Source: Bacillota bacterium (GTDB lineage: Bacteria > Bacillota > Sulfobacillia > Sulfobacillales > Sulfobacillaceae). From it: a DNA stretch of 64,000 bases. Each line of letters begins with the position of its first letter. Within the stretch, counting starts at the first letter, position 1. Both the position numbers and the translations under genes were made by a program. The DNA lies in assembly GCA_026627385.1 (NCBI GenBank), contig JAPNUR010000005.1, positions 94,498-158,497 on the forward strand, given 5' to 3'. Positions 5,997 through 43,371 of the stretch are shown here, piece after piece. The notes beneath the pieces are model-generated. The model did no database searches. It saw nothing but the letters and a program-made list of their open reading frames with translations, and had not been told where the DNA came from.

Positions 5997-7085
5997 TTAG
6001 CTTAGCGCCGCGGTGACCAAGACCGCCACCCGATAGCCCGCCGCGTCCACGAGACCCCCTGCTGCTAACCCGCCCACAATGGCCAGGGCACTCATCCCCA
6101 GGCGTTGACCGGCAAAGACTCTGCCCAAGTATCCTTCAGGCGCTGCCAATTGACGCAGTGTACTGAGATTGATAGATAATACGCTTGCCCGACAGTCCCG
6201 CCAAGAACGCGCTGGTCGTCAGGATGCCGATACTCAACCCTGGGCGCAGCCCCGGGGTAATGATCGCCACAGCCCCGAAACCAACCACGTACATAAGACT
6301 CGCGAGGCCGGTAAGAGGACCTGTCACCGGTGCGCCAGAGGGGTGCGCATTAGCGCCCCAAAAAGCCCGCCCATCGCTCCACACATGGTCAAAGCGCCAT
6401 AAACGAGGACGCCAAGCCGTAGATACCGCATCATGTCTAACACATAAACAACCTGCCACATCGCCGCTAAGAGGCTCGGGGCCAAGATGACAATGGTCAT
6501 CGTGCGCGAGAATGAAGTGTCCCAGAGCGCTTTTAATCCCTCCACGATGTCTTTCAAGATGTCCCTACTACTCGCGACTGGGTGGGAAAAGGCGTCGCGC
6601 TCGAAGGGCGCATCCACAATAAGCATCCCATCGCGACTAGGTAGGGCAGCGCGTCAACCACCGAACCAAAAGATCCGCCAGTTCCGGACCGGTCAACGAT
6701 GCGACCTAGGCACTCGCGGACAGCCAACTATTGGCTCTCCTGAGAGACGCGCGGGGCACAAAGTCTGGCAAGAAGGCATGCCAAGCCGCGCCGAACGCGC
6801 TAAGACAGCCCATTAACACGAGTACGGTGTAGATTATTAATGCAATGGACAAACGATGAAGGGGGATCCGTCGATAGCAATAATCGCCAACAGCAGACCA
6901 GCCGTCAAATCCCATAATCCAAGAATCGCGGCAGGTCCGAGCTCCGCGAATGTGGCCCAACCCAATTGGAACGCGGACGCGTGGAGGGACACCACAACAA
7001 TCAGAGGCGAAGCAAATCGACTCACTTCAGAGCCGACGAACGAAAGGGATTTCCCCAGCCAGAATTTCGCGAAATCCCGAGGCAA
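5997..7085 (-). pseudogene. MFS transporter (EntS/MFS_3-like) broken by several frameshifts
   Basis: Minus-strand ORF pieces 6837..7085, 6706..6960, 6324..6626 and 6136..6459, plus a tail to the TAA at 5997..5999, read as consecutive parts of one 12-TM MFS protein. The sequence runs FAKFWLGKSLSFVGSEV.. then ..GDYCYRRIPLHR (=ADR.DRR) then ..AFLPDFVP..L..AN.. then ..GRVFAGQRLGMSALAIVGGL. The pieces sit in different frames. Confidence 0.55.
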
Positions 7086-7111
7086 CAGGTCTTGTTTCTG
7101 AGAAGCTTGCC

Positions 7112-7632
7112 CTATCCGTCAGAATCAAAACGATCTATTGTACGGTAGATCCGTGTACTTGTCGGCCTGTCCCCTCTAAAGCCGGTGCCATATGATTTAA
7201 TGATCCCCGTCGGGCAGAGCACACGTCCCCCGCAGGACACTTGTGTTAAAGACTTCCCGCGGGCCCGACGAGCAAAGACTATCACGTCCGCGCACTCACC
7301 CAATTCGTGCGCGACTTGGGATGGACAATCACCATCGGTCATGTATGCGCAGATTTCGGCAAAAGTAACGGAATCACTCGCGCGCAACCGCTTGCCAGGC
7401 GAATGTCCCGGTACCACGGGCCCAGCCGGGTCTCCCCATCGCGGCTGCGATGCCCGTTGCGGCGGGTGGTCCGCTCGGTGGAGCGCTCATAGCGCTGGGC
7501 GCCGATTGGGACACTCACCTCCGCTGCCATGCGTGGCTGCCAGAACCGTTCTGTCGCCTCCCGCAGACAGTCGACATCCTCGACTTCCGCGTTTCGCCAG
7601 AGGTTGAGCCGTGGCACACGAGGAGTCGTCAT
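7112..7632 (-). pseudogene. IS256-family (Mutator-like) transposase, N-terminal fragment, frameshifted and 3'-truncated
   Basis: ORF 7339..7632 contains GAQRYERSTERTTRRNGHRSRDGETRLGP. Compare the IS256 Tnp block AKEYERTENRQSQRNGYYERSFTTRVGT. The continuation in another frame (7112..7417) reads GHSPGK..FAEICAYMTDG..SQVAHELGEC, corresponding to GHFSP..MLEMYVSGVSTRKVSKIVEELCG. The DDE core is absent. Confidence 0.5.
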
Positions 7633-8158
7633 TCCATTCGGTCCTCCTTAGTGGATTGTTGTCGATTCCAAGGAAACCGAATAGGATGCGGCTTGTCCAG
7701 ACCATTTCTGGCATGCCGCGGTGGGTCGGCGGCCCGTCCCTGCCCCTCGGCTACGCCTTCTGGGCAGGGAACGGCCCCGAATTTACACCAACAAATTGGA
7801 CGCTAACGCTAATACTGTCGATCCTCATCCCACATCAGTCGCAATACCGCGACAGGGCAAAAGCGAATCCTGCATAACTCCGATGTATCCCTCAAATTTT
7901 TTTCTACCACAGTGGTCTCAACACACGCCCTGTTCAGATTGCGCTCGCGAGGGCTTTACTGTACCATCGGGTAACCTCGCTATACCAAGTAGTCGCGCCG
8001 CCGCGCACTCGCCGTGTTCAGCGAGCCGTTGGACAGGATACCAATAGCTCGCAGGTGTTGGGATGCACAATGAAGAGCTAACCGGAACAGGAACGTCGGA
8101 ATGAGATGGCCATTCGACAGCTGATACCTTACCTTCACCTCATTACCTAGCGCGGAGG

Positions 8159-8178
8159 CCCCGTCCTTCAGGGCAGGG
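8159..8178 (+). repeat. Putative left-end subterminal hairpin of the IS200/IS605-type element
   Basis: CCCCGTCC-TTCA-GGGCAGGG. Seven of 8 positions pair (one G-U wobble, one mismatch). It lies about 65 nt upstream of the tnpB start. Confidence 0.35.
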
Positions 8179-8243
8179 AGGAAGCGCGTCAATCGCCGCG
8201 CACGCCGTGGGCGTGATGGCGCATTCTCTGCGCTACTTCTGTT

Positions 8244-9359
8244 ATGAACCGGACAATGGTGATCACACGCCCACCGAATCCCGCGCAAGCGACCGCGCGG
8301 TTGGCGACCATGGGGCGTGTCCACGCGGCCGGCAACGCCATGGCGGAACCCGCGTTCCGCGAACGCACCGCGAATAAGAGCCCTCGCCCCAAACTAGGGT
8401 ATCAGGAGATGCGCCAGACATGCGGCCTGTCTGCGCAATGAACGGGGCGCGCGATCGGAAAAGTCGCCGAAGCCGACAAACGGGATCCGCAGTTCCAGCC
8501 GACGGTCCGCCCGCCCGGGGCCATCGTGGACGATTCCCGCATCCTTTCGTGGCAAGGGGTGGACCAGGTGTCGATCCTGACCCGGGACGGGCGCCCAGTC
8601 GTGCCGGTCGTCATGGAGGGGTACCATCGGGCGCGGAGGGAGCGCATCCGCGGTCAAGCCGGCCGGATCTACCGCGACGGGCAGTGCTACGTGGCCGTCG
8701 TGGTGGAGGTCCCCGAACCGCCTTTCCTGCAACCGAACGACGGGTTGGGCGTGGATCTCGGCCTGGTCCATCTCGCCGCCGACTCCGACGGCCAGACCCA
8801 CTCGGGCGGTCCAGTCCATGGCCTGCGCAAACGGCCTGCCCAGATCCGTCAACGGTTGCAGAAGAAGGGTATCCAGTCGGCTAAGCGGCTCCTCCAGAAG
8901 CGGCGACGCACGGCACACCGCTTTGCGGAGAATGAAAACCACCGGATTGCGAAACAGCTGGTGGCGAAAGCCCAAGGCACCGGGCGCGGGATTGCCCTCG
9001 AAGATTTGACGGGCATTCGCGACCGGATCACGGTTCAGAAGGCGCGGCGGCGCCGCCAGCACAGTGGGGCATTCCACCCATTGCGGCAGTGTCTTCAGTA
9101 CCAGGCAAAGTGGGCCGCGGTGCCTGTCGCTTTGGTGAATTCGCGCAACACGTCGCGGACGTGTCCCCACTGGGGACGGATTGACAAGCGGAATCGTCCG
9201 AATCAAGCCTCCTTCCGGTGCATCGGCTGGGGCTTCGCTGGGCCGGCCGACCCCATCGCTGCGGGTAACATTGCTCGCAGGGCGGCTGTCAACCCGCCGC
9301 ACGCGGGGCCTCTGCGGGAGGCACAGGCAAGCTCCGCCCCTTTAGGGCGGGGTTGTTGA
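8244..9359 (+). pseudogene. tnpB: TnpB (IS605 OrfB-type RNA-guided endonuclease) with an in-frame TGA at codon 66 and a degraded zinc finger
   Basis: ORFs 8244..8441 and 8526..9359 are in one frame and separated by a single TGA (8439..8441). The junction reads ..YQEMRQTCGLSAQ-*-TGRAIGKVAEADKRDPQFQPTVRPPGAIVDDSRILS, a typical contiguous TnpB block. RuvC motifs GVDLGLVHLA and IALEDLTGI and the ..PADPIAAGNI block are present. The zinc-finger positions read CPHW and CIGW, where CxxC is expected. Confidence 0.7.
9331..9353 (+). repeat. Putative right-end hairpin (within the expected omega-RNA/reRNA region) of the IS200/IS605-type element
   Basis: GCTCCGCCC-CTTTA-GGGCGGGGT. The core is 6 perfect bp (CCGCCC/GGGCGG), extendable by C-G and G-U pairs. 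It overlaps the last codons of tnpB, as is usual for this family. Confidence 0.4.
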
Positions 9360-9496
9360 CCGTAAAAACACGCAAAACTTCCGCGGCCAACACCAACGGC
9401 CATCCCAAATGGGGACAGGTTACTCATGATGCGAGCCAGAATACTGAAATTCGCGTAACCGATTCTTAGGATTCTTTCGCAAACCGAGTCATCTGC

Positions 9497-10813
9497 CTAT
9501 TGGCTGGCCCACACTTGGCCCAGGGTCTCAAACACGAAGTGGTGATGCGCCAAATCGCGAAATAGCAATGGCCATACGACGGGGGCGTCGAGCAGCACAA
9601 TCTGGTTGGGATGCGTTAATAAAGCGGACACGAGGGCTTTAGTGGTCAGCCGAGGAGTTCGGGCGGGAGTGATGATCGCGCTAGGATTCATGACAATCAA
9701 ATTGTCGCGGGTCGCTACCTGCGACACCAGGGCATTAGCGCGTTGCGTCATGACCAGGTAACCGGGGTCGGATCCCGCGGCCGAAGCCACCGCGCGCTTG
9801 GCCCAACTTAGTTCTTGGGATACTCCCCACGAAGGGAGTTCGTTAAGATTTGTCCCTGTGTACCCGTTCACAGCAATCTCATTGCCTAATGCCTTCAACC
9901 GGGCTATCAATCCAGGATGGGTCAGCGCCCAGGCTCCCGTCACACTAATGTCAACCACTTCCCATCGCGCCTTTTCGGCCTGAATCAGAGCCAAAAGCTC
10001 GGCATCGGTGGGATTCATGACCACCAAATCCGATACCGGATCGAGATTTGCCAATACCCCAGTAATCGGCGGCACGCCAGTGGCAGACGCGGTCGATGTG
10101 GGAGACTGACTATGGGACATCGGTTGCTGCGGTGATGATCGGGGGGGAGGGACTACCTTCGGCGGCACGGCTTTCCACACGATCGGTTGACCGACCTGCA
10201 CACGATTGGACGGACTCGGATTGGCGCGCTCGAATCCGGAGAGGGGCAAGCCCGCCGCCCAAGCAAGAAACGAGAGCGTGTCTCCGGGCTGGGCGCGGTA
10301 GGCCCAGTGGTGCTCTGCCGTCACCCGTACGGCGGTCGCATGGGCTAAGGTCAAGAGCATCGGCCCGCTGATGGTCGTGGAGGGTGTCATATTCAACTCT
10401 TCGGCGAATTGGTTCAGGCCATCCCGTAAACTCGGCGACTCTTCACTGCGATACGGTCCGCGATATAACCCTAATTGGTGCAAATCGCTTTCCATCGCCA
10501 GCACCAGGGGGCCCTCTAAACGATTATGGAACGGTCGCATGCGCGTTAACAGTTGCGCCAAGCGCGAGGACAAAGGTCCTCCGGATGGGCCGAAATCTGC
10601 CTCAAATGACGCGGCGGCGTTGATGGTCCGCGCATTCATCACACCGGTCACGGGACCGGCATCATAACCCAAGACCCCTAATTCAGCCTGTAGTTGCGCA
10701 ACGGAAAAGCCACAGGATCCATGCTGCCATTCGTGGCCGCCGCCGCTGGAAACCAACGCCAGCGATAACAATACGTGGACCCACGACGTAAAATTGCCCG
10801 CTGCCATGTGCAT
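9497..10813 (-). CDS. Secreted cell-wall-binding protein with a peptidoglycan-binding (PG_binding_1) domain, a LysM domain, a Pro/Ser linker and a NodB (polysaccharide deacetylase)-like C-terminal domain lacking the usual catalytic motifs
   Basis: The 476-aa ORF overlaps the upstream membrane-protein gene, so an internal start is preferred: MHMAAGNFTSWVHVLLSLALV (signal-like), with GGAGGG upstream. Domain evidence is LQAELGVLGYDAGPVTGVMNARTINAAASF (PG-binding), YRAQPGDTLSFLAWAAGLPLSGFERANP (LysM) and LIARLKALGNEIAVNGYTGTNL (NodB-like, with NGYTG where a His motif is normally found). Confidence 0.65.
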   Translation of the reverse strand: MHMAAGNFTSWVHVLLSLALVSSGGGHEWQHGSCGFSVAQLQAELGVLGYDAGPVTGVMNARTINAAASFEADFGPSGGPLSSRLAQLLTRMRPFHNRLEGPLVLAMESDLHQLGLYRGPYRSEESPSLRDGLNQFAEELNMTPSTTISGPMLLTLAHATAVRVTAEHHWAYRAQPGDTLSFLAWAAGLPLSGFERANPSPSNRVQVGQPIVWKAVPPKVVPPPRSSPQQPMSHSQSPTSTASATGVPPITGVLANLDPVSDLVVMNPTDAELLALIQAEKARWEVVDISVTGAWALTHPGLIARLKALGNEIAVNGYTGTNLNELPSWGVSQELSWAKRAVASAAGSDPGYLVMTQRANALVSQVATRDNLIVMNPSAIITPARTPRLTTKALVSALLTHPNQIVLLDAPVVWPLLFRDLAHHHFVFETLGQVWASQ

Positions 10814-10857
10814 CCCTCCACTGCCAGGATGCACCAAAATAGAAAATTTATTCCTTG

Positions 10858-11211
10858 CTAGCGGGTGTAGGCGCCCGTGGCCCCACCGACCAAACCGGCC
10901 ACCGCGGCCAACCCAAGGCCTAGCCACAAATGGTTCCCAGGGTTCGCATGAAGGGTCTCACCGACGACCGTCGCTACTAGATTTAACGTGATGGCGGCCA
11001 GCGCGCCGTGAAACCAGCCCGCGACCTCAGCCAACCGCCCCGCAGCCCATCCCGCCATAAAGGCGGTGAGCGCAGCTCCAGTCCAAATCAACACCGTTTC
11101 TACGCGGCTCGTCAATGCTAACTGATAATCCAAAATCGCCACCGCCAAGGCCAATACAAATGCCACACCGAGCCCAATTAAGGCCCCTTCGAGTACAGCT
11201 CGCACGCTCAC
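10858..11211 (-). CDS. Small integral membrane protein (3-4 TM; resembles the TIGR04086-type Firmicute membrane proteins)
   Basis: 117 aa, almost entirely hydrophobic helices rich in G/A/L. Confidence 0.5.
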   Translation of the reverse strand: MSVRAVLEGALIGLGVAFVLALAVAILDYQLALTSRVETVLIWTGAALTAFMAGWAAGRLAEVAGWFHGALAAITLNLVATVVGETLHANPGNHLWLGLGLAAVAGLVGGATGAYTR

Positions 11212-11286
11212 CGGGGCGTGCCTCCTTCCATGGTGGGCTTTCTTGGCACAAGATATGGTTGTCCGGCTGTAAACATGACTCCTTAA

Positions 11287-11323
11287 TCAAAAAGACAGGC
11301 CCCGGAAAGAGCTTTCCGGGGCC
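11287..11323 (-). terminator. Rho-independent terminator downstream of the SASP gene
   Basis: On the minus strand: GGCCCCGGAAAG-CU-CUUUCCGGGGCC followed by UGUCUUUUU. Confidence 0.6.
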
Positions 11324-11328
11324 GCCTT

Positions 11329-11538
11329 TTAGCCGTCCTCGCCAATTTGCTGTTCCGCCCGTTCTATCAGGCGCTTCACCATGGTGCCGCCGATTTTGCC
11401 CACCTCGCGGGTCGTCATATTCGCCCACCCCCGGGCGGCAATGTCGTCGTCCAATTCTAAATCCTCGGCAACCTCATACTTCAAGCGGTCCAGCCCGCGT
11501 TTGGCGGCAGGAAAGAGCGGGCGACGGTGATGAGCCAT
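11329..11538 (-). CDS. Small acid-soluble spore protein, alpha/beta type
   Basis: 69 aa. GLDRLKYEVAEDLEL...REVGKIGGTMVKRLIERAEQQIG parallels the SASP consensus ALDQMKYEIAQEFGV...[22 protein letters not shown]. Confidence 0.85.
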   Translation of the reverse strand: MAHHRRPLFPAAKRGLDRLKYEVAEDLELDDDIAARGWANMTTREVGKIGGTMVKRLIERAEQQIGEDG

Positions 11539-11576
11539 ACTCCCACCTCCCCCGGCCTAGGATGCCGCGCTCTAAT

Positions 11577-12350
11577 TTAAATATCCCTCAGCAAAGGCGG
11601 CACCGCCACATCGGTCAAGGTTGCCAGGGTTTTCTGGTCTGTTAAGTGCATGTGCAGGGGAGTTAGAGTAATGGCCCCCTGGTGATGGTGAAAGACGTCC
11701 GTATCCTCTTCTTCCAAAGCATCCACCCGTTCCCCAGCAATCCAGAAGTACTCGCGACCTCGGGGATCGCGCGCCCGTTGAAAATCGTTGACGTACTCCC
11801 GCCGGCCAAGGCGAACAGCCCGCATGGCACGCGGCACGCCTCGGCGCAAGCTCGGAAAGTTCACATTATAGACCACCCCGGGGGGCGGCGGCGCAAACTG
11901 AGGCTGGGTAATCCACCAGCGAACAAACCGCGCCGCCCATTCGAACCCGCCTTGGTCGTCATCCTCCAAGGACAACGCAATGGCCGGCACCCCCAAAAAC
12001 ATGGCTTCCATGGCCGCCGATACCGTGCCCGAATAAAAGACATCCTGGCCTAAGTTGCTGCCGTGGTTGATGCCCGACAGCATGAGATCGGGTGGCGACG
12101 GCAAGAGCGCCCCTAACGCTAACTTCACGCAGTCGGCCGGAGTGCCGCTCACGCGCCAGCCATGACTCGCGGGACCATATCGCACCGCGTGGGCGTACAA
12201 GGGTTTATGCATGGTAATGGCATGACCCGTGGCACTCCGTTGCCGTTCGGGCGCCACTACCGATACCTCCGCTACGGATTCCAGATAACGGCGCAACGTT
12301 TGGATGCCGCGTGCCTGAATGCCGTCATCATTGCTAATGAGAATATGCAT
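11577..12350 (-). CDS. surE: 5'/3'-nucleotidase SurE
   Basis: An internal start giving MHILISNDDGIQARGIQ is the canonical SurE N-terminus (with DDG metal ligands). Also contains GINHGSNLG and YSGTVSAAME. Confidence 0.9.
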   Translation of the reverse strand: MHILISNDDGIQARGIQTLRRYLESVAEVSVVAPERQRSATGHAITMHKPLYAHAVRYGPASHGWRVSGTPADCVKLALGALLPSPPDLMLSGINHGSNLGQDVFYSGTVSAAMEAMFLGVPAIALSLEDDDQGGFEWAARFVRWWITQPQFAPPPPGVVYNVNFPSLRRGVPRAMRAVRLGRREYVNDFQRARDPRGREYFWIAGERVDALEEEDTDVFHHHQGAITLTPLHMHLTDQKTLATLTDVAVPPLLRDI

Positions 12351-15024
12351 GTGCGGACCCCCAAAATTCCTCGATAACCCGGACAATCTCCGCCGCCGGC
12401 ACCGTAACGGCAGGGACATCCGGCAACGATTCGAGAAAAAACCGCCCATAGCGCGAGTGCTCCGGCCGAATGCGCGGGTCAAAGACGATCACAATGCCCC
12501 GGTCCCGATTGGTGCGAATAAGCCGACCGAACCCTTGCTGAAACCGTAAGACCGCTTCGGGAATACTTCGGTGGTAAAAGGGCGACAGGCCAGCCCGGCG
12601 TAACCGCTCACATTTCGCTTCCTCCAAAGGATCGCCTGGGGCGCGAAAGGGCAGCCGCCCCATAATCACAATCTCCAGGTCGTCCCCCGGAAGATCCACA
12701 CCTTCCCAATACGTCAGAGTGCCAATCAACACCGAGGTGGGATGGCGGCGGAATTCCGTCACCAGACGCCGGGCAGATCCATCGACATTTTGTGCCAAGG
12801 TGCGAATACCTGCCTCCTGTAGTGGTTCCCGGATTCGCCAAGCTAAACGCTCGACCGCCCGGTACGAAGTCAAGAGCACCAACGTGCGGCCGCCCCGCGC
12901 CACGGCCGCGTCTCGAACCACGTGCGCGAGTACATCATTATAACGCGGATCATCAGGATGAGGAACGTCTTGAGGAATCACCAGGCGCGCTTGTTCGGAC
13001 CAGTTAAACGGCGAGGACACGAGGAGATCCATCCGCCGCTCTGGGCTCACTCCCAGCCGCTCCGCCATATAATCAAACCGCCCGTGTACCGCTAACGTGG
13101 CTGATGTCAGCACCGCACTATCGATGGTTGACCAGAGCTGGCGTCGCATAAAGTCGCGAATATCCACCGGTGCCCAACGCCACCGCACCACCGGCAGGCC
13201 CTGGCGGTCCGTCAAGACCTCCCACCACGACACGCGCTCCTCGCTGTCCTGGCCCCAGAGTTGGAGACCATCGCTCACCTGCGTCAATTCTTCCAGCCAT
13301 TGCCGGAACTTTAACCAGCGGGGTTCATCCGCCACTTGACGAATCGAAGCCTTGTCAAGACATTCCGTTGCCGCCCTGACCAGATCCGTCAACACACCCA
13401 GCGTGGCCTCTCTCAGGTCCTGGACCCCGGCGTCCTCGAACACATCGGTAAGTGAAGGGGTCACCCGCACCGCACGGCGGTCGTATTCGCTGGCCGGCGT
13501 AACCGCCACCAGCGCCTCCGCCCAGCGGGTCAGGGACTCATGGGCTTGATGGTAATAGTCGCGGACCGCTTCCCACAGCTCGCCCTCGTCGAAATCCTGA
13601 CGGATTTTGGACAACACGCCATATCGCGGATGCGTCGCCTCGCGAAGGCGCCTCCCCCAGTGTTCCAGATCCAGGGAAAATCCCAGCATTTCTTCCACGA
13701 CGTCAGCCCAATGATGCGCTTCGTCGACAATCAAATGGCTAAACGAAGGCAATACGCCTCCAAATATGTGATGCGCCGCTAACAACGCGTGGTTTACCAC
13801 CACCAGGTGACTCGATTCCGCCGCGTGGTGCGCCCTCCGCATAAAACAGGGGCCCGAATACGGACAGCGGGCGCCCGCACACGAATGTCGATCAGCCACC
13901 ACCTCTTGTGCAACCGCCCACGCCGCTTCGTCCGTCATCGCCATGTGGTCCAGATCACCCGCGTCGGTCTCTTCAAGAAAGGTTAACAAGGTCGCAATGG
14001 CCCCGCGCCGCTGGGGGGTATCCGCTAACACCGCGCTGCTTTGGACCAATTCGGCTACCTTGTAGAGACACACATAGCGTCCCCGTCCCTTGACTAACGC
14101 CATTTCCAGCGGCCAATCTCCCCGCGCTTGGGGCAAGTCTTTTTCCCACAACTGTTCTTGCAGGGCCACGGTATGCGTGGCCACCACCACCCGCTCGCCC
14201 GTGGTCATGGCCTTTAAGAGGCTAGGAATCAGGTAGGCAAAGCTCTTCCCCGTCCCTGTACCCGCCTGTGCAAAGAGAATGCGCCCACTGTTGAGCGCCG
14301 TGTCCACCGCCTGTAACATGGCATCTTGCCCCGGCCGCCGTTCAAATGGAATGGCCTGCGCTTGACCTATCCGATCCAGCCGCTCGGCCGGCCCCTCTGT
14401 TGTCGGCGATATGGCCAGCGGTTCAGCTTGGAAAACATCCGGTTCGGGCCGGTATAAGGGAGATATCCGGTGACCGGCATGCTCCTCTGGCACGTCCCAC
14501 CAGTCCCATTCGGGTCCTAAAAACCGGGCTAAGTCCTGCTTGAGACTCGTGGACATGGCCGCACACCGTTCATAGATGATCTTGAGTAAGCGTTCGGTGA
14601 GCTCCACATCGCGTCGGGCATCGTGCAGCGTCTCCACGGCGTCGGGAAACCAATCGGCCAATCCATGCTGAGTGCGCAAAGGAAAGGCCAAACGGCTCCA
14701 CCAGAGGGTGTCTAGGGGATTGAGCAACCGAATTCCCTCTGTCCTTAAAAAAGCGGCGTCAAATCCGATATTGTGCCCGACCACCCGCGCGTCTCGGATC
14801 CAGTCTAGGATAGTTTGGCGCAGGGCCGAAAAAGGCGGATCCTGGGCAAAATCCCTATCGCCCACTTTGGTTAATTGGCGCACCGTCTCCGGAATCGAAC
14901 GTCCAGGGTTGACAAACGACGACCAGGCGGTGCCGTCAGACCGCCGTAAGGCGATTTGAATGATGCGATCCTTTTGGGGATCAAGCCCGGTGGTTTCAAC
15001 GTCAATCACCACATATGGGCCCAT
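12334..15024 (-). CDS. dinG: Bifunctional DnaQ-like 3'-5' exonuclease / DinG-family ATP-dependent helicase
   Basis: 896 aa. The N-terminal Exo I motif is VVIDVETTGLDP. Walker A is AGTGTGKS. The DEAH box is LIVDEAHHW. The C-terminal helicase motifs include FWEGVDLPG. Confidence 0.9.
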   Translation of the reverse strand: MGPYVVIDVETTGLDPQKDRIIQIALRRSDGTAWSSFVNPGRSIPETVRQLTKVGDRDFAQDPPFSALRQTILDWIRDARVVGHNIGFDAAFLRTEGIRLLNPLDTLWWSRLAFPLRTQHGLADWFPDAVETLHDARRDVELTERLLKIIYERCAAMSTSLKQDLARFLGPEWDWWDVPEEHAGHRISPLYRPEPDVFQAEPLAISPTTEGPAERLDRIGQAQAIPFERRPGQDAMLQAVDTALNSGRILFAQAGTGTGKSFAYLIPSLLKAMTTGERVVVATHTVALQEQLWEKDLPQARGDWPLEMALVKGRGRYVCLYKVAELVQSSAVLADTPQRRGAIATLLTFLEETDAGDLDHMAMTDEAAWAVAQEVVADRHSCAGARCPYSGPCFMRRAHHAAESSHLVVVNHALLAAHHIFGGVLPSFSHLIVDEAHHWADVVEEMLGFSLDLEHWGRRLREATHPRYGVLSKIRQDFDEGELWEAVRDYYHQAHESLTRWAEALVAVTPASEYDRRAVRVTPSLTDVFEDAGVQDLREATLGVLTDLVRAATECLDKASIRQVADEPRWLKFRQWLEELTQVSDGLQLWGQDSEERVSWWEVLTDRQGLPVVRWRWAPVDIRDFMRRQLWSTIDSAVLTSATLAVHGRFDYMAERLGVSPERRMDLLVSSPFNWSEQARLVIPQDVPHPDDPRYNDVLAHVVRDAAVARGGRTLVLLTSYRAVERLAWRIREPLQEAGIRTLAQNVDGSARRLVTEFRRHPTSVLIGTLTYWEGVDLPGDDLEIVIMGRLPFRAPGDPLEEAKCERLRRAGLSPFYHRSIPEAVLRFQQGFGRLIRTNRDRGIVIVFDPRIRPEHSRYGRFFLESLPDVPAVTVPAAEIVRVIEEFWGSAHAYSH

Positions 15025-20273: not shown

Positions 20274-21086
20274 TCATGTGCCCCGGCTATCTACCGTCTC
20301 TAACACCACCCGCACCACTTCGGGTCGGGCTCCCCAGCGAATCGGAAGTTCTGACGTACCCAAGCCCCGCGATGTAATCAGCACCGGGCGGCCGGGAGAT
20401 TCTAAGCGCCCGGCCACATACGGCTCAGGAATGCGCGTGTGGCGGACCAGCACTCCCAATCCCGGCAAGACCACTTGCCCACCGTGGGTGTGACCCGCCA
20501 AAATCAGCGACACACGCTCGATGCCGGGAAGAAGCCATGCGTCCGGCCGGTGAGACAATAACACGGCACGATGGGACGACGCACGGAGGACTCCCAGAAC
20601 CTGATTCCAGTTGGGGCTCCCGCGCACCAGATCCGGGAGGCCCGCAAGCAGCAACGTCTCTCCGTTTTTCTGAATAGGAACCACGCGATTGTCCAACAGA
20701 CGCGCGCCCGGCTGCCAGGGCTCTACCGCGAGGCGATTCTGGTGATAATCGTGATTGCCCGACACGTAGTATGCGCCGTACGGCGCGCTCAGTGCATCCA
20801 ATCGCTGCGCGAGCGGCCGGCGCGGCCGCGTTGGCGAATAGAGGTCTCCGGTGACGGCCACCAGATCAGCGGTTGCAAGCCATTGTTGAAAAGGCGCCCA
20901 CGAAAAAACCCCCACCCGTCCATGAAGATCTGACAGGTGGAGGATGGAAAAGCCATCAAACGCTTCTGGCAGGTCGGCAATTTTGACGCGATATTCCACT
21001 GCCAACCAGTGATACGACTCCAGCGTCGAGACTATCAATCCCGCGGCTAACAGCCCGCCTGTCGCGATCAGAGCGGTTGTTCCCAT
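20274..21086 (-). CDS. Membrane-anchored metallophosphoesterase (calcineurin-like, YkuE-type)
   Basis: N-terminal TM helix, then ILHLSDLHG, TGDLY, GNHDY and GHTHGGQV. Confidence 0.85.
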   Translation of the reverse strand: MGTTALIATGGLLAAGLIVSTLESYHWLAVEYRVKIADLPEAFDGFSILHLSDLHGRVGVFSWAPFQQWLATADLVAVTGDLYSPTRPRRPLAQRLDALSAPYGAYYVSGNHDYHQNRLAVEPWQPGARLLDNRVVPIQKNGETLLLAGLPDLVRGSPNWNQVLGVLRASSHRAVLLSHRPDAWLLPGIERVSLILAGHTHGGQVVLPGLGVLVRHTRIPEPYVAGRLESPGRPVLITSRGLGTSELPIRWGARPEVVRVVLETVDSRGT

Positions 21087-33267: not shown

Positions 33268-34074
33268 GTGATTCTGCTGTCATATCGTCAGATACTTGGG
33301 TCCCGCATTCGCACACTTCGGGAATCCGCGGGCTGGTCTCAGGCGGAAATGGCGCGCCGCATACCCTTATCGCAAAAGCAGTTGTCGCGCTTAGAACTGG
33401 GCGACGTGTCGCTGGTGGACCGCCACCTCCTCATCCGCATTGCTGAGATCTTAGATACGCCCTTGGCCACCGGAGAGCTCAACCAGTGGCTCCATGCCTT
33501 CGGCTACCGCCCGCACATTATGCCGCTCCTGCCACTACCCCCGGACTGGCCAGCCTTGCTCAATCATTTTGGGTTTTATCCCGCCATGATTGTGGATTTC
33601 GCCCGCTATATCCGCAAAGGCAATCAGGTCCTCGAGTCGGTCCACGGCGTATCGATCGAGGGTTTGTCAGGAATTCGGCGCAATTGGCTGTGGCACTATT
33701 TTCATCCGGACGGCATGCTGTATCATACCTATCCCCGCGATTCCCGCGCTCGTGTTTTGAACCGGTTGTTTTGGGATTGGGCCCCATACTTTAACGAGCC
33801 TTGGAATCAAGAGCTACGACACGACTTAGAAACCGCCGTTGGGATCTTATGGTCCGATTTGCAAAACCGCTATCAAATTCCCAGTGAGCCGGTCGCTTCG
33901 CCAATGTCGGAAACGGTGACCATTCCCAGGTCTGATGGGTCGATTCTGCTCTTTCAAACACAGGTGGCGCATTTGCCGCGACGGCCGGATCTGTTGACGG
34001 TGGTCTACGAACCGTTAAACGACGATGCGCTCTACTGGTGCCGGACAGAAACGTGCCGGCCTAAGGGCGCCTAA
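33268..34074 (+). CDS. XRE-family HTH transcriptional regulator with an MmyB-like C-terminal ligand-binding domain
   Basis: The HTH is LGSRIRTLRESAGWSQAEMARRIPLSQKQLSRLELGD. It is followed by the MmyB-style pattern ..L..AG..P.....P..YPAMIVDF....GN.....V....N.L...F...... and LTVVYEPLNDDA. Confidence 0.65.
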   Translation: MILLSYRQILGSRIRTLRESAGWSQAEMARRIPLSQKQLSRLELGDVSLVDRHLLIRIAEILDTPLATGELNQWLHAFGYRPHIMPLLPLPPDWPALLNHFGFYPAMIVDFARYIRKGNQVLESVHGVSIEGLSGIRRNWLWHYFHPDGMLYHTYPRDSRARVLNRLFWDWAPYFNEPWNQELRHDLETAVGILWSDLQNRYQIPSEPVASPMSETVTIPRSDGSILLFQTQVAHLPRRPDLLTVVYEPLNDDALYWCRTETCRPKGA

Positions 34075-34076
34075 CG

Positions 34077-34694
34077 GTGGACGCGTGGGATGGGTTGCGC
34101 CGCCGGTGGGCCGCGATTCCTCCGACCGTCGCGATCCACATCACCGCCCCGCGTCAGGACGCTGCCTCCGTCCGCGCAACCGAAGACCTGTTAAGCGAAT
34201 TGATGGCCCCCGGCGATGCTGTGACGGTGCACTGGCATGTCGACATGAAGAGTCCCGGTCTCGTGATTCGCTGTTCTCGCGACCACCACACAGGGCCCAT
34301 CAGCTTTTGGGGTACGCCTTCAGGCTACGAGCTGGAAGGTTTGCTGTATGCCCTCGAGCGCTTGGCCTTTGGTCCCCGGACCCCGACACCATTTTCTGCT
34401 CCCCATACTGAGCTGATCCGCCAAATCGAGCGTCCCCTGGCGATTGACCTCTACGTTGCCCCCACGTGAGCGTTTTGTCCGCAGATGGTCCATCTGCTCG
34501 TTGACGCCGCGACCATCAATCCCCGGATCTCCGGGCGCATCATTCAAGTGGCCGAGTTTCCCGACTGCGCCCGCCGCCACCAGATTTGCCGCACGCCCAC
34601 CCTGGTGACGGCCTCGGGCCGCAGACTAAGCGGCAATGTGCCCCCGCCCCTGGTCGCCGGTTTTCTGTGGCGTGAAACCCTTAAAGAGGAATAG
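34077..34694 (+). CDS. Candidate selenoprotein: double-thioredoxin-fold protein (AhpF N-terminal domain / glutaredoxin-like PDO family) with UGA (34467..34469) as codon 131, giving a U-A-F-C redox motif
   Basis: Track ORFs 34077..34469 and 34485..34694 share one frame. Read-through gives ..ISFWGTPSGYELEGLLYAL...LAIDLYVAPT-U-AFCPQMVHLLVDAATINPRISGRIIQVAEFPDCARRHQICRTPTLV.., which is the family pattern with Sec in place of the first Cys of CxxC. A SECIS-like hairpin begins 11 nt after the UGA. The start is GTG, 2 nt after the regulator's stop. Confidence 0.6.
34481..34497 (+). promoter_or_regulatory. SECIS-like hairpin downstream of the in-frame UGA
   Basis: GCAGAU-GGUCC-AUCUGC is a perfect 6-bp stem, with a possible seventh G-C pair. 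The loop GGU lies at +21 to +23 counted from the U of UGA. Compare E. coli fdhF (GGUC apical loop, G23/U24). Confidence 0.5.
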
Positions 34695-34732
34695 CATCGG
34701 CACCGTGCGGTATCGGCCTCCCGCCAGAGCGA

Positions 34733-35077
34733 TCATTTTACGAGCTTCTCAGGCCATCCTTGGATGCCGCCCCTCAGGTTGACCGCACGGTAGCCATAAC
34801 TCCGCAGCAGCTTTGCTGCCTGGCGACCCCGCCGCTCACTGGCGTCCACGGTCAGGATCGGCTCTTTGGCTGGCAGCTCGTGTAGCCGCTTTTGCAATTC
34901 GACGTATGGGATGAGATGGGACCCTTTAATATGCCCCTGGCGATACCGCGACAAGTCTCTCAGATCCACCACGAAATACCGCTGACCCGAGCTCAACAGC
35001 GCGCGCCCGTCGACGTCTAGCGGCTCTCTAGCCGTCCTGGGGCCGCGCTTGAACTGTCCTTTGAGCCATTCAATCAC
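34733..35077 (-). CDS. Single-domain rhodanese-homology protein with Asp in place of the catalytic Cys
   Basis: VVDLRD...Y..GHIKGS..IP....L......PILTVDASERRGRQAAKLLRSYGYRAVNLRGGIQGW aligns to IVVYCrsGrRS.qAA..L...G...V..L.GG...W, with D at the Cys position. Its start overlaps the stop of the upstream peroxiredoxin (ATGA). Confidence 0.8.
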   Translation of the reverse strand: MIEWLKGQFKRGPRTAREPLDVDGRALLSSGQRYFVVDLRDLSRYRQGHIKGSHLIPYVELQKRLHELPAKEPILTVDASERRGRQAAKLLRSYGYRAVNLRGGIQGWPEKLVK

Positions 35078-35532
35078 CCTTTAAGATCCTCCAACACCTG
35101 AAACACCGCGTCGTAATGAGCGCGGTTCCCCGCCTCAAATGCGGTGTTTTGATAAACCAGGCGATGTTGACGGTCTAACACAAACACCGAACGGCGCGCG
35201 ATGCCATGCGCCTGGTCAAGCACCCCATACGCCTGGGTGGTTTTCCGCATCCAGTCAGAGGCCAGTTCAAATGGCAAGCCGCCTAATGCCAATTTAAAAA
35301 TCTTCAACGCATAGACCTGGTCGCAGGACACAGCCACCAACGAACCGCCGGATTGTTGTATGCGATGATAGTCCGCCTTCCAGAGGACTAACTCTTGAGT
35401 TCACCCACCGGTGAACGCCAAAGGGTAAAACGCCACTACCAGCGGACCTTGCTCGACCTGCCTTGTGGACACAAATTCGCCCCCGCTGGTATCCGTCAGT
35501 TGGATAGTCGGAGCTACATCACCGAGATTCAC
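35074..35532 (-). CDS. Candidate selenoprotein: peroxiredoxin (AhpC/TSA-Bcp-like) with UGA (35403..35401) as codon 44 in place of the peroxidatic Cys
   Basis: The track shows only the C-terminal part (35074..35340). My reverse-complement reading of the same frame upstream gives (GTG)MNLGDVAPTIQLTDTSGGEFVSTRQVEQGPLVVAFYPLAFTGG-U-TQELVLWKADYHRIQQSGGSLVAVSCDQ... This matches the Prx consensus ..G..AP.F.L.D..G..V.L.....VVL.FYP.AFT..C..E. A G-rich SD (GGGGGGG) ends 5 nt before the GTG. A hairpin begins 10 nt after the UGA. Confidence 0.65.
35369..35390 (-). promoter_or_regulatory. SECIS-like hairpin downstream of the peroxiredoxin UGA
   Basis: mRNA sense: UAGUCC-U-CU-GGAA-GG-C-GGACUA. The outer stem is 6 bp and the inner stem has C-G and U-G pairs. 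The apical GGAA has G at +23/+24 from the U of UGA. Confidence 0.45.
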
Positions 35533-35611
35533 AATGACCCCCCCTGCTTTCTGGATCCTGGCATTCTGACTTCGTCGTCCTTCGTCCCCATCATATCACG
35601 CCCTAAACCGC

Positions 35612-36547
35612 TTACCGCTCATCCGCTGACCGAAATATGTTCGACAAATAGTTTCGCCCCGTATCGGGGCACAGAGCCACCACGTAACCCGCGCGCGTTA
35701 GCGTTCGTGCTTGATCTAACGCCACCTTGACAATCGCCCCCGACGAACCGCCGACCATGATCCCTTCTTGGCGCGCCAGTTCCCGTGTCATGTGAAAGGC
35801 CTCGTCATCCGTGACCGGCACCCAGCGATCGACCACCTCCTGGTCCAACGTTTCAGGTATGTAGTCTTCACCCATGCCTTCGATTTGAAAAGGCTTGACA
35901 GGCCCCGTAAAAATCGATCCGACGGGATCAGCGCCCACCACTTCAATCGACGGATCGCGTTCTTTCAAATAGCGGCCGATGCCGGTAATCGTACCTCCGG
36001 TTCCGGCGCCAGCGACGACCATCGCCAGCTGACCTCCGGTTGCCTCCCAGATTTCCGGTCCCGTCGTGGCGTAGTGGGCATCTGGATTGGCTGGCTGTTC
36101 AAATTGTCCCATGTAGGCGGCCCCAGGGATAGTCGAAGCTAACTCACGCGCCACGTTGTGATAGTGGTTGGGATCGTCGCGCCCGACGTCGGGAACCACT
36201 TTGACCGTCGCCCCATACGCTTGCAACAGCCGGATTTTGTCAACGCTCATTTTGTCGGGCACCACAAAAATGCTGCGATAACCTAACACGGCAGCGGCCT
36301 GCGCCAGCGCAATCCCGGTGTTGCCGGCCGTTGCCTCGACAATGGTCCCGCCAGGTGCTAACCGCCCCTGGGCTTCGGCCGCGCGAATGAGAGCGAGTCC
36401 TATCCGATCCTTAATGGACCCGCCAGGGTTGACGCTCTCCAATTTCACGAGCACGCGCGCGCGTTCCGAGCCGCCCACCCGATGGAGGCGGATGAGCGGG
36501 GTGTTCCCTATCACCTCCAGCACCGTATCGTAAATGCCTAACGCCAT
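35612..36547 (-). CDS. cysK: Cysteine synthase / cystathionine beta-synthase-family PLP enzyme
   Basis: Contains IGNTPLIRL, the PLP-lysine region LESVNPGGSIKDR, EATAGNTGIALA and GAGTGGTITG. Substrate specificity (CysK, CysM or CBS) cannot be decided by eye. Confidence 0.85.
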   Translation of the reverse strand: MALGIYDTVLEVIGNTPLIRLHRVGGSERARVLVKLESVNPGGSIKDRIGLALIRAAEAQGRLAPGGTIVEATAGNTGIALAQAAAVLGYRSIFVVPDKMSVDKIRLLQAYGATVKVVPDVGRDDPNHYHNVARELASTIPGAAYMGQFEQPANPDAHYATTGPEIWEATGGQLAMVVAGAGTGGTITGIGRYLKERDPSIEVVGADPVGSIFTGPVKPFQIEGMGEDYIPETLDQEVVDRWVPVTDDEAFHMTRELARQEGIMVGGSSGAIVKVALDQARTLTRAGYVVALCPDTGRNYLSNIFRSADER

Positions 36548-40980: not shown

Positions 40981-42208
40981 AGATTGGAGCTTGGGTACCC
41001 ATTATCCAGTAGACGCCACCCCTCGCGTGGCGCGCCCCGAAGCCGCTGAGCGCGAATGGCCGCTGGTCAAGAGTGTGGCCTGGATATTTATCCTCTCGCG
41101 CCTTTTTTTCTTTGAAGTCGCCAGTTTAGCCTATATTTACCTCCCACACGCCTGGGTGGAGGCCCCCGAAGGCACCCTGCCACCATCCGGCAGCATCCTT
41201 TATCACATCACTGCTGGCCTCTGGGTCCATTGGGACGGCCTCTGGTACTTATCCATCGCCACCTATGGTTACCGCAACCGGCCCACGGCCACCGCCTTTT
41301 TCCCGCTGTACCCCCTCGCCATGAAGCTATTTGGCGGAGGCGTCATCAGCGGGATTGTGGTGTCGCTCCTCTGCTTTCTCCTCGCGTTGTGGTTTCTCGC
41401 CCGCCTGGTCACGCTGGAACTCGGGCCCCGCGTCGCCTGGTATACGCTGTTGGCGTTAGCCTTTTTTCCCACCGCTTTTTATTTAAATGCCGTGTACTCG
41501 GAATCGTTATTTTTAATGCTGGCCAGCGGATCGCTGTATTTCTTGCGCACCCGGCGCTATTGGCTAGCCGGGCCACTAGGCGCCCTGGCCACTCTGGTCT
41601 CCATGTACGGCATTTTGCTGGCGGTCCCCTTCTTTTGGTTCATCGGGCGCCGCGAAGGCTGGAGAATCGGGCGGTTGGCGCATGCGTTGTGGATGCCCTT
41701 GGGACTGTCAGGCTATATGGCATTTCTGGTCCCCCGTTTTGGCTATCCGTTAATTTTTGAAAAGGCGCAGTCAAACTGGGGGCGTCACTTCGAGTTCTTT
41801 GGGGTCACGTTATACCAAGCCTTCCAAAGTGCCCTGAAAGCCATGCCGTTAGACTTTCACTGGCATCAACTCTTTGCCCTGGGCGTCCCATCCACCACCC
41901 CTAGTAACTTTTTCAACCTCCTGTTTGGCCTAGGAGCTATTGCCCTCTTGGTGATGAGCTTCCGTCGCATCCCCTTTTATCTCTGGATTTACGCCTTGTT
42001 GGCCCTCCTCATCCCCTTTTCCTATCCAGCCAATGGCACCCCCCTCATGTCCATGCCGCGGTTGGTTCTCGAAGCATTCCCGTTGTTCATCGGTTTGGGC
42101 AGCATAATGGCCCGGGTTCCTTGGACCCGAGCCGCCTACTTTGTTCTCGCCGTGCCCGTCGGCATCATCCTAACCGCTCTCTTTGCGACGGCCCACTGGG
42201 TCGCCTAG
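40973..42208 (+). CDS. GT-C-fold integral-membrane glycosyltransferase (mannosyltransferase/PIG-V-like)
   Basis: About 11 predicted TM helices. The loop WDGLWYLSIATYGY......AFFPLYP is typical of this family. ATG at 40973 has GAAGGAGG upstream and overlaps the preceding gene by 8 nt. Confidence 0.6.
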   Translation: MARDWSLGTHYPVDATPRVARPEAAEREWPLVKSVAWIFILSRLFFFEVASLAYIYLPHAWVEAPEGTLPPSGSILYHITAGLWVHWDGLWYLSIATYGYRNRPTATAFFPLYPLAMKLFGGGVISGIVVSLLCFLLALWFLARLVTLELGPRVAWYTLLALAFFPTAFYLNAVYSESLFLMLASGSLYFLRTRRYWLAGPLGALATLVSMYGILLAVPFFWFIGRREGWRIGRLAHALWMPLGLSGYMAFLVPRFGYPLIFEKAQSNWGRHFEFFGVTLYQAFQSALKAMPLDFHWHQLFALGVPSTTPSNFFNLLFGLGAIALLVMSFRRIPFYLWIYALLALLIPFSYPANGTPLMSMPRLVLEAFPLFIGLGSIMARVPWTRAAYFVLAVPVGIILTALFATAHWVA

Positions 42209-42525
42209 TGGCCCCCGCAGCCGCAGCCAGCCGGGGCATTGGGATTAGAGATGTAAAACCCTTCCGACAAGGCCTCTTTCTTATAGTCAATAATGCTGCC
42301 GTCTAAAAGCGGCTGACTGTCTTGGTCCACCAAGAGCGTCAAGCCCGGCGCCGGCAGAACCTCGTCGTCCGCGTGACGTTCGGTTTCCCAGTGCATTTGG
42401 TAGCCAATGCGACCGCAGCCGCACGCCTGACCGGCGCTAATGCGGACGTAATCCGCCCGCTTGTCTTGACTTAACGCCTCGAACGCCTTTTCGGCCTCAG
42501 GCGTGATCGTCAGATTCACTGCCAC
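42205..42525 (-). CDS. HesB/IscA-family iron-sulfur cluster insertion protein
   Basis: 106 aa. Contains VRISAGQACGCG.IGY and the C-terminal F.I.NPNA...CGCG. Confidence 0.8.
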   Translation of the reverse strand: MAVNLTITPEAEKAFEALSQDKRADYVRISAGQACGCGRIGYQMHWETERHADDEVLPAPGLTLLVDQDSQPLLDGSIIDYKKEALSEGFYISNPNAPAGCGCGGH

Positions 42526-42549: not shown

Positions 42550-43371
42550 CTAGACCACCCGACCACCTCTGTAAAGGCGCATCATGTTATGGGCAATCAG
42601 GAACAGCGACAACGCCGTGAGCGTTAAGGCTAACCCGTAGGACATGAGCCGTCGCCGAGAGGCCAGGCGGCCCGCTAGCGGCATCACTAACGTGCTGCCA
42701 AACAGGCCCCCGGCGCCGTAGACGGCGACGACGCGCCAATCGACCAACCCTTTGAGTGAGTAATGCAGCGCGGAGGCGAGGCCCAACGATCCGACAGACA
42801 CGACGGAGGAGCCCACCGCCGCACTGAGGGAGAGCCCTCCTAACATCATGCTCGGCAAGGCCAAAAAGCCCCCGCCAGTCCCAAACAGCCCGGCTAAAAT
42901 CCCGACCGTCAGCCCGCTTGGTACCACCCGCAACCACATCTGGCGCGACGGCAATGTGGATGCGGGTGGTGTGGCAGGCACGCTGACTAAGAACGTGGCG
43001 TTAAATAGCATCACCACGCCTAACAGCGTCAGCAATAGGTGCGACGGGAGATCATTTTGCAGTCGGCCTCCAATCATCACCCCAACCACCCCGGGCAGGG
43101 TAAAGGCTAACGCGTAAGACCAGGCCACGTGGCCGCGACGCGCGTGCATCACGGCGCTCAATATGGCCGTCAGAGCCACAGACACCGCGGTGGTCCCCAT
43201 GGCCAGGCGCACGCGCGTCAATCCCACGAGGCTCGTCATGATGGGAATAGCCACAATTGAGCCGCCCCCTCCGACTAAGCCAAATAGCGCCCCCGTTAAG
43301 AGACCGGCCAAGAGTGCCCAAACATTTTGCCATATCGTCAAATGTGGCATTTTTGACCAATCCCTCCTCAC
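42550..43371 (-). CDS. TauE/SafE-family anion (sulfite/organosulfonate) exporter
   Basis: 273 aa, about 8 TM helices, with the duplicated G.GGG....P motif (GLVGGGGSIVAIP and GLFGTGGGFLALP). Confidence 0.8.
   Translation of the reverse strand: MRRDWSKMPHLTIWQNVWALLAGLLTGALFGLVGGGGSIVAIPIMTSLVGLTRVRLAMGTTAVSVALTAILSAVMHARRGHVAWSYALAFTLPGVVGVMIGGRLQNDLPSHLLLTLLGVVMLFNATFLVSVPATPPASTLPSRQMWLRVVPSGLTVGILAGLFGTGGGFLALPSMMLGGLSLSAAVGSSVVSVGSLGLASALHYSLKGLVDWRVVAVYGAGGLFGSTLVMPLAGRLASRRRLMSYGLALTLTALSLFLIAHNMMRLYRGGRVV

Follow-up and report, generated by a model that had tools for sequence, protein, structure and literature searches.

An in-frame UGA at the catalytic position of a PDO/AhpF-like gene from uncultured Bacillota: evidence for a selenoprotein

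Does an in-frame TGA lying between two short open reading frames (ORFs) mark the end of one gene, or the catalytic residue of a selenoprotein? The question is raised by a 64,000-nt stretch of Bacillota DNA (NCBI GenBank assembly GCA_026627385.1, contig JAPNUR010000005.1, positions 94,498-158,497 of the forward strand; hereafter 'the window', from whose start all coordinates are counted), in which the ORF listing gives two plus-strand frames, 34077..34469 (130 aa, GTG start) and 34485..34694 (69 aa). An initial annotation, made from the letters of the sequence and its ORFs, described these as lying in one frame, parted only by a TGA and five sense codons, and proposed that together they encode a UxxC selenoprotein, with selenocysteine (Sec, U) in place of the first Cys of a CxxC redox motif, related to the N-terminal domain (NTD) of AhpF and to protein disulfide oxidoreductases (PDOs). 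The ORF listing and the translation agree with that description of the frames in every detail, and the sequence-based tests that were run favor the interpretation. We present evidence that the two 'hypothetical' ORFs are very probably a single gene, encoding a 205-residue redox protein in which the catalytic Cys is replaced by Sec through recoding of the UGA.

One reading frame and a column of Cys and Sec

Translation of 34077-34694 encounters a single stop, the TGA at 34467-34469, in the context ...RPLAIDLYVAPT*AFCPQMVHLLVDAATINPR..., and codon-position GC stays in phase on both sides of it. The product ends at residue 205 and is followed by a convergent gene.

The arrangement is conserved. 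A protein search returned seven homologues, 39-56% identical and 126-141 aa in length, all ending in ...DLYVAPT. The DNA of these homologues, together with four species-level genomes from a GTDB scan and one more contig, provided 12 TGA-type loci with 10-11 distinct sequences. All come from uncultured Bacillota, whose isolate labels (CF.Solf, WH, HSP) suggest a solfatara or hot-spring origin. TGA occupies the same column in 12/12 of these orthologous loci, and in every one the frame runs on through [A/G]-F-C-x-Q-M-V-H-L and ~70 more conserved codons to a real stop (TAA, TAG or TGA), with about 74 in-frame codons 3' of the TGA. The subfamily is narrow and syntenic, and was found solely in metagenome-assembled genomes (MAGs) of uncultured Bacillota.

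Synonymous sites among the orthologues are near saturation (mean proportion of synonymous differences, pS, 0.63-0.70), and the regions downstream (nonsynonymous proportion, pN, 0.33; pS 0.63) and upstream (pN 0.40; pS 0.70) of the TGA are under comparable purifying selection. Judged from this alignment, the invariance of the TGA goes beyond chance. Two positions between the TGA and the first in-frame ATG are particularly informative: Phe133 is invariant as a residue, encoded by TTT in 4 and TTC in 6 of the aligned sequences, as is Cys134, encoded by TGT in 5 and TGC in 5. Fixed residues with free synonymous change indicate selection at the protein level, which is possible only if the TGA is decoded.

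What residue do relatives carry at the column of the TGA? A search of 1.84 billion representatives with a profile built from the N-terminal 130 residues yielded 154 matches, 139 of which reach the end of the profile. Of these, 94 stop precisely at the U column, with ...PT as the last residues in 91; 44 run on with Cys at that column, 41 of them as CxxC, and the remaining one has Ser. An additional, N-terminal CxxC is found in 26/94 of the truncated and 27/45 of the full-length relatives. The 94 truncated relatives suggest that the PDO/AhpF-NTD-like family has many Sec forms among its database relatives, and that gene callers routinely cut them short. One truncated relative bears the name 'alkyl hydroperoxide reductase subunit AhpF' in its source.

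The closest comparison is provided by a Cys orthologue (P0017) with a TGT codon at this position, encoded at 6001-6615 of locus L016 (Logan SRR32752771, contig 13712). The locus is fully syntenic, with the gene order SpoIVA, YceI, Der, membrane protein, helix-turn-helix (HTH) regulator, PDO, 105-aa ORF, rhodanese and PALP, and represents a natural Sec-to-Cys (or Cys-to-Sec) switch inside one orthologous group. No peroxiredoxin gene adjoins the PDO-like gene in L016. The initial annotation had asked that homologues run contiguously across the UGA with Cys in that column, and this is what the 44 full-length Cys relatives and the syntenic TGT orthologue do, alongside the 94 that end there.

The family assignment made at the outset also proved correct. 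For scans against NCBIfam and Pfam, the stop was replaced by Cys; the top NCBIfam match was TIGR02187 ('PDO_seleno_TRX'; 1.5e-23, 83.3 bits, residues 52-190), followed by the AhpF model TIGR03140 (1.9e-15, residues 24-180, 56 bits vs. a cut-off of 503), and the Pfam match was Thioredoxin_3. An orthologue profile searched against the PDB matched Pyrococcus furiosus PDO (1A8L, 2.9e-18) and an AhpF NTD (1ZYN, 1e-9, residues 3-188). In the alignment to 1A8L, the stop column coincides with the first Cys of the C-terminal CPYC (FVTPT-C-PYC-P vs. YVAPT-U-AFC-P), so that the stop falls, as had been proposed, on the nucleophilic Cys, with a Cys retained three residues later. The fold was modelled on the syntenic Cys orthologue, which is 36% identical to the window product from end to end, with one gap. 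Superposed with Foldseek, the AlphaFold2 (AF2) model (predicted local distance difference test, pLDDT, 94.9) has template-modelling (TM) scores of 0.77-0.82 against the PDOs 2AYT, 2YWM, 1J08, 2HLS and 1A8L, and of 0.78-0.84 against the AhpF NTDs 5H29, 6IL7 and 1ZYN, its best structural matches. As modelled, the protein consists of two tandem thioredoxin folds in one chain, of the PDO/AhpF-NTD type.

The window protein shares features with both groups and differs from each. PDOs (P. furiosus 1A8L, P. horikoshii 1J08, A. aeolicus 2AYT/2YWM, A. pernix 2HLS, SsPDO) share its two-fold architecture, with profile E-values of 3e-18 to 1e-7, and its active site, ...V(T/A)PT-[C/U]-x-x-C-P..., located in the C-terminal unit, which in PDOs carries thiol-transferase activity. 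They differ in having Cys rather than Sec and, in the characterized archaeal PDOs, a further CxxC in the N-terminal unit. The window protein and its close orthologues contain no CxxC in residues 1-130, as in AhpF and in contrast to many TIGR02187/PDO members; the initial annotation had said as much of the upstream half. The AhpF NTD (Salmonella typhimurium 1ZYN/1HYU, Escherichia coli 4O5Q, Enterococcus faecalis 5H29/6IL7) likewise consists of two thioredoxin folds, only the second of which holds a redox centre, and passes electrons to a peroxiredoxin (AhpC). In AhpF, however, the NTD is fused to a ~320-residue FAD/NAD(P)H thioredoxin-reductase-like module (~520 residues in total), whereas the window protein stands alone, has Sec for Cys, and has no such reductase encoded nearby.

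Selenoproteins of this design have been described. The UxxC family was catalogued in 2006, with members in Carboxydothermus hydrogenoformans and Symbiobacterium thermophilum; reports from Asgard archaea followed (PMC1794560, PMC9312934, PMC13188914). Like the window protein, its members are stand-alone proteins of ~200 residues with two thioredoxin folds and Sec for the first Cys of the second-fold CxxC, and they share the placement of the Sec insertion sequence (SECIS) directly 3' of the UGA and the occurrence in thermophilic Bacillota. The window gene is an unannotated, divergent member of this known selenoprotein family, working in the same way.

A conserved hairpin downstream of the UGA

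In addition to the recoded codon, the initial annotation had reported a perfect hairpin beginning 11 nt after the UGA, and the hairpin was confirmed: 17 nt at 34481-34497 (GCAGAUG-GUC-CAUCUGC) form a perfect stem-loop. The published model of the bacterial SECIS (bSECIS) calls for an apical loop of 3-9 nt with G in its first two positions (pattern N1-G-[G|U]-N-N2), an upper stem of 4-16 bp, a UGA-to-loop distance of 16-37 nt and a minimum free energy (MFE) of -7.5 kcal/mol or lower, although many bSECIS elements resemble neither one another nor those of E. coli (PMC13188914). The window element falls within all of these ranges, with a stem of 7 bp, a GUN loop of 3 nt (or, equivalently, G-GUN-C) and a spacing of 18 nt; its MFE is -7.7 to -7.8 kcal/mol in all TGA orthologues. 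As in fdhF-type elements and bSECIS generally, the hairpin lies within the coding sequence just 3' of the UGA, and its apical loop begins with G and then U. The minimal fdhF SECIS is reportedly also a 17-nt stem-loop beginning 11 nt after the UGA.

The evidence for the element comes from comparison of the orthologues. The stem is 100% paired in 10/10 distinct TGA sequences (70/70 cells), and RNAalifold recovers exactly the 7-bp helix and no other. Eight sequences close the stem with C-G and two with G-C, amounting to one compensatory event. An extended lower stem, which pairs the UGA region in the single-sequence fold, is unconserved and absent from the RNAalifold structure, and was dropped from the element.

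Because the stem encodes an invariant peptide, QMVHL, constraint on the RNA had to be tested beyond that on the protein. Among 35 invariant residue columns with degenerate codons, the codon itself is invariant at only four: TGA, CAG (Q136), CAT (H139) and CTG (L140). The latter three are exactly the stem codons, while the loop codon, GTN, is variable. Only 16 of 2304 (0.7%) synonymous recodings of PQMVHLL yield a 17-mer at -7.5 kcal/mol or better. In the Cys orthologue of L016 the peptide is RMAHL, with His encoded by CAC and Leu by TTA, and the equivalent 17-mer is unstructured (0.0 kcal/mol). Comparison of the TGA loci with L016 therefore associates the hairpin with TGA and its absence with TGT: the element is a selected RNA structure that co-occurs with the TGA. 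Loss of the hairpin among TGA orthologues, named at the outset as an outcome that would speak against a selenoprotein, was not seen; the hairpin is kept in all of them, with one compensatory change, and is lost in the Cys orthologue.

These observations bear directly on the reading assumed by automatic annotation, that the UGA terminates, and that a 130-residue protein and a 69-residue protein re-initiated at the ATG at 34485 are made separately and may assemble non-covalently. Gene callers split the gene in this way in every public assembly; as the initial annotation had predicted, the NCBI annotation of sister MAGs gives 130 + 70 residues, with the 130-residue part named 'hypothetical protein'. 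The in-frame ATG, 15 nt after the TGA, is conserved in all orthologues, and no Sec machinery was seen in the window and flanks. Yet the five codons from TGA to ATG hold the invariant Phe and Cys with synonymous variation, and hence are translated, with no in-frame start in this interval and no Shine-Dalgarno-like sequence before the ATG, which itself lies in the frozen stem. A split would also cut a thioredoxin fold at its active site, losing both redox residues, and in the syntenic Cys orthologue, as in 43 other relatives, the whole protein is one chain. We consider termination with re-initiation highly improbable, and read the two ORFs as one gene with a decoded UGA.

Several results nevertheless weigh against a selenoprotein and its SECIS. 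No Rfam SECIS family matched at gathering score in the whole window, and at E ≤ 10 the interval 34300-35700 gave weak chance matches only, so that, of the SECIS-model check proposed initially, agreement with the published bSECIS consensus was obtained and a match to an Rfam model was not. The single-sequence fold of 71 nt is no better than that of shuffled sequences (z = -1.31); the hairpin is minimal, its -7.8 kcal/mol being barely past the -7.5 threshold; and the covariation consists of a single evolutionary event. The window hairpin lacks the bulged U of the E. coli fdhF SECIS and has no conserved lower stem, and its loop is a triloop or a G-C-closed pentaloop. Support for the SECIS is thus comparative rather than thermodynamic. 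The TIGR02187 score of 83 bits lies below the curated cut-off of 185, and the window protein is, on these scores, a divergent relative of TIGR02187 rather than an equivalog member. Finally, ARAGORN found no tRNA-Sec in the 64-kb window and nine related loci; tblastn with E. coli (NC_000913) queries gave no matches to SelA or SelD in the window and the flanks of the loci; and selB was not found in the window and loci, the two weak SelB matches being the GTPase domains of Der and RF3. The absence of selA, selB, selD and tRNA-Sec from a 64-kb slice is uninformative. A literature search on Sulfobacillus selenoproteins found nothing useful.

A neighbouring peroxiredoxin gene and the decoding of UGA

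A second candidate for UGA recoding is located ~700 nt away on the opposite strand (Table 1). The peroxiredoxin frame 35532..35074 contains a single internal TGA, in ...VVAFYPLAFTGG*TQELVLW..., and its best PDB matches are Sulfolobus Bcp4 (3HJP, 8e-14) and 2YWN, with U aligned to the peroxidatic Cys; there is no Cys at +5, the site of the second Cys in 2YWN. The TGA and the downstream frame are kept in six distinct orthologues, in which invariant codons cluster at GGG43, TGA44 and the stem codons GTC49, CTC50 and GAC54 (GUCC..GGAC), while flanking codons vary. The predicted hairpin has an apical GGAA loop, opening with GG, that starts 19 nt after the UGA; in L008 its stem is weaker. Sister-genome annotations cut this gene, too, into fragments (43 + 85-88 aa).

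The top NCBIfam match of the peroxiredoxin is PrxU (NF040737), at 46.6 bits vs. a cut-off of 270. PrxU is an AhpC-like, 2-Cys type. Selenoperoxiredoxins (NF040737 peroxi_PrxU; the 'Peroxiredoxin (Prx)' family of Zhang et al. 2006) likewise have Sec at the peroxidatic PxxxTxxC position, and are already catalogued as a selenoprotein family. Unlike PrxU, whose profile spans 233 positions, the window peroxiredoxin has 152 residues, is of the Bcp/PrxQ type with Sulfolobus Bcp4 as its nearest match, and lacks a resolving Cys at +5. As the same signature is found in two independent genes ~700 nt apart, Sec decoding in this organism is very likely.

Table 1. Features of the redox locus and its flanking genes, in window coordinates
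Feature	Coordinates	Strand	Details or basis
MmyB-like HTH regulator	33268..34074	+	Pfam HTH_31 6.6e-13 and MLTR_LBD 6.2e-7; ends 2 nt before the start of the predicted selenoprotein gene
PDO/AhpF-NTD-like predicted selenoprotein, coding sequence	34077..34694	+	Stand-alone; 205 codons including Sec131; GTG start, TAG stop 34692-34694; centre U131-A-F-C134
Predicted Sec codon (UGA), residue 131	34467..34469	+	Nucleophilic first Cys position of the C-terminal CxxC; TGA in 12/12 loci, Cys in 44 relatives; 1A8L alignment
Codon (TGT) of resolving Cys134 of UxxC	34476..34478	+	Between the TGA and the first possible restart; Cys invariant, codon variable
Candidate bacterial SECIS	34481..34497	+	7-bp stem, apical loop G-U-N (equivalently G-GUN-C), begins 11 nt after the UGA; conserved pairing, codon freezing, bSECIS criteria
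Single-domain rhodanese	34733..35077	-	Pfam Rhodanese 9.1e-14; start overlaps peroxiredoxin stop by 4 nt, same operon
Bcp/PrxQ-type peroxiredoxin, second unannotated predicted selenoprotein gene	35074..35532	-	152 codons; PxxxTxxU (FYPLAFTGG-U-TQE); AhpC-TSA 9.3e-25; one internal TGA
Putative SECIS of the peroxiredoxin mRNA	35369..35390	-	UAGUCC-ucuggaaggc-GGACUA; predicted fold; frozen stem codons
Predicted Sec codon (UGA) of the peroxiredoxin, residue 44	35401..35403	-	Peroxidatic position
CysK/CBS-like pyridoxal-phosphate (PLP) enzyme	35612..36547	-	PALP 8.1e-75; upstream of the peroxiredoxin gene

A general reassignment of UGA was rejected: TGA ends 12/49 long ORFs, and also the peroxiredoxin gene and the PDO-like orthologue of locus L001. 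These last two genes, the L001 orthologue (L001 9605-10225) and the window peroxiredoxin (stop at 35074-35076), each use TGA as a predicted Sec codon where a hairpin is present and as terminator where there is none; both roles of TGA in the same mRNA are a direct illustration of context-dependent decoding. A codon-usage-model scan of the window for in-frame TGAs with coding potential on both sides retrieved only the peroxiredoxin codon and 20274-20276 (-). The latter was discarded as a recoding candidate, being merely the stop of a metallophosphoesterase gene, with the ATG of the next gene at 20261 in the same frame. The TGA at 34467-34469 fell below the arbitrary score threshold of the scan, though the codon-position GC around it is in phase.

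If the UGA is decoded through this hairpin, the inserted residue might still be other than Sec: Cys, delivered by a SelB-compatible tRNA(Cys)-like molecule, or Cys or Trp from near-cognate decoding when selenium is scarce. Some bacteria have tRNAs of the first kind ('allo-tRNA' or tRNA-ReC type), sequence data do not distinguish the residue inserted, and the Cys orthologue demonstrates that Cys is acceptable at the position. On the other hand, TGT or TGC would be the simpler way to encode Cys, and the one lineage that took it lost the hairpin; the PDO-like and peroxiredoxin families are both established Sec families; and the hairpin fits the SelB-type bSECIS consensus. Non-Sec recoding therefore seems hardly probable, and we infer actual insertion of Sec and, with it, the machinery that this requires. 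A pseudogene, or an assembly or sequencing error, is excluded: although a single mutation turns TGT or TGC of a former CxxC gene into TGA, the same codon is present in 12 independently assembled loci whose proteins are 36-57% identical, the frame beyond it remains intact under purifying selection, with codon-level evidence of translation, and the peroxiredoxin gene exhibits the same pattern, in keeping with the view taken at the outset that a chance nonsense mutation was unlikely.

Possible function and genomic setting

Following the general scheme of bacterial Sec insertion, SelB-GTP with Sec-tRNA(Sec) would bind the 17-nt hairpin at 34481-34497 and deliver Sec to the A site at UGA 34467, after which the ribosome would read 74 more codons to the UAG. 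The product would be a cytoplasmic thiol/selenol-disulfide oxidoreductase whose sole redox centre is U131-x-x-C134 in the second fold. By analogy with the family, the Sec131 selenolate would attack an oxidized partner, Cys134 would resolve the adduct to an intramolecular selenenylsulfide, and a flavoenzyme of the thioredoxin reductase type would re-reduce it with NAD(P)H.

Which partner might this be? In Sulfolobus, Bcp1, Bcp3 and Bcp4 are regenerated by a chain from NADPH through thioredoxin reductase (Tr) to PDO, via the C-terminal CxxC of the latter (PMC7465337), and the window gene adjoins a Bcp4-like peroxiredoxin gene. The peroxiredoxin has no resolving Cys and so needs an external reductant; the PDO-like selenoprotein is therefore proposed as its recycler. 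Synteny and the Sulfolobus Tr/PDO/Bcp precedent make the neighbouring Bcp-type peroxiredoxin the most likely client, in what may be a peroxide-detoxifying relay. In a dedicated, all-selenium form of such a relay, the UxxC PDO-like protein would regenerate a 1-Sec Bcp-type peroxiredoxin by way of a short-lived Se-Se or Se-S bond between the two, and would itself be fed by a thioredoxin reductase. We offer this only tentatively. Two results count against it: a peroxiredoxin gene is adjacent in just 6/10 lineages, and no thioredoxin reductase was found among most of the predicted genes of the window, which are by Pfam and NCBIfam ordinary housekeeping genes. With adjacency limited to these lineages and no thioredoxin reductase nearby, the case for a PDO-like/peroxiredoxin relay is circumstantial.

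The flanking genes are consistent with two transcription units. The HTH regulator gene lies immediately before the orthologue, or overlaps it, in L001, L003, L004, L008, L016 and L017. Since the regulator gene ends 2 nt before the start of the PDO-like gene, and abuts or overlaps its orthologue in most sister loci, the two are probably co-transcribed. On the opposite strand, the rhodanese gene is a conserved neighbour in most loci, and the PLP enzyme gene at 35612..36547 matches cystathionine beta-synthase (CBS) and cysteine synthase models at 6e-114 to 1e-92, all below their cut-offs. The order cysK/CBS-like, peroxiredoxin (U) and rhodanese in this convergent operon suggests a redox and sulfur-handling module.

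A minus-strand ORF of 104-105 aa without a Pfam match overlaps the 3' end of the PDO-like gene, upstream of the rhodanese gene, and is conserved in several sister loci (L004 3770-4087, L005 10590-10907, L016 6599-6916, L017 2060-2374). It is missing in the window and in L001, where the convergent genes are only 38 nt apart.

Elsewhere in the window, an IscA/HesB-like gene (42205-42525, -) adjoins a gene for a TauE/SafE-family transporter (42550-43371, -). In other bacteria that use Sec, S. thermophilum among them, HesB-like proteins are selenoproteins; the window gene, which has a weak match to NCBIfam IscA_HesB_Se, is uninterrupted and contains no in-frame TGA. The gene-poor region 5625-9360, with short overlapping ORFs and, at its end, a 277-aa ORF (8526-9359, +) with IS605 OrfB and Cas12f1-like TNB domains, looks like a decayed TnpB element of the IS200/IS605 family. 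A further ~1.4 kb (10927-12334) contains neither a well-scoring coding ORF nor an Rfam family, and is flanked by a 476-aa ORF without a Pfam match (9497-10927, -) and a DinG-like exonuclease-helicase gene (12334-15024, -).

Prior cataloguing of the UxxC family lowers the novelty of the selenoprotein call, not its correctness, and knowledge of how Sec insertion works is unchanged by the finding. For annotation, the consequence is immediate, as both active sites, that of the PDO-like protein and that of the peroxiredoxin, are lost in the split public records. For the organism, the finding implies that a little-known group of uncultured Bacillota decodes Sec, with two predicted selenoproteins paired in a manner that matches the biochemically characterized PDO/Bcp redox couple. 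For the family, TGA with a hairpin in 12 orthologues vs. TGT without a hairpin in one constitutes a natural experiment, and the contrast shows a SECIS kept by selection at synonymous sites, dissolving once Sec becomes Cys. Should the relay prove true, the Sulfolobus Tr/PDO/Bcp system would have a Sec-based counterpart in spore-forming Bacillota known only from hot-spring and solfatara metagenomes, and the clade would in addition supply a natural case of a change from Sec to Cys, with UGA and SECIS lost at once.

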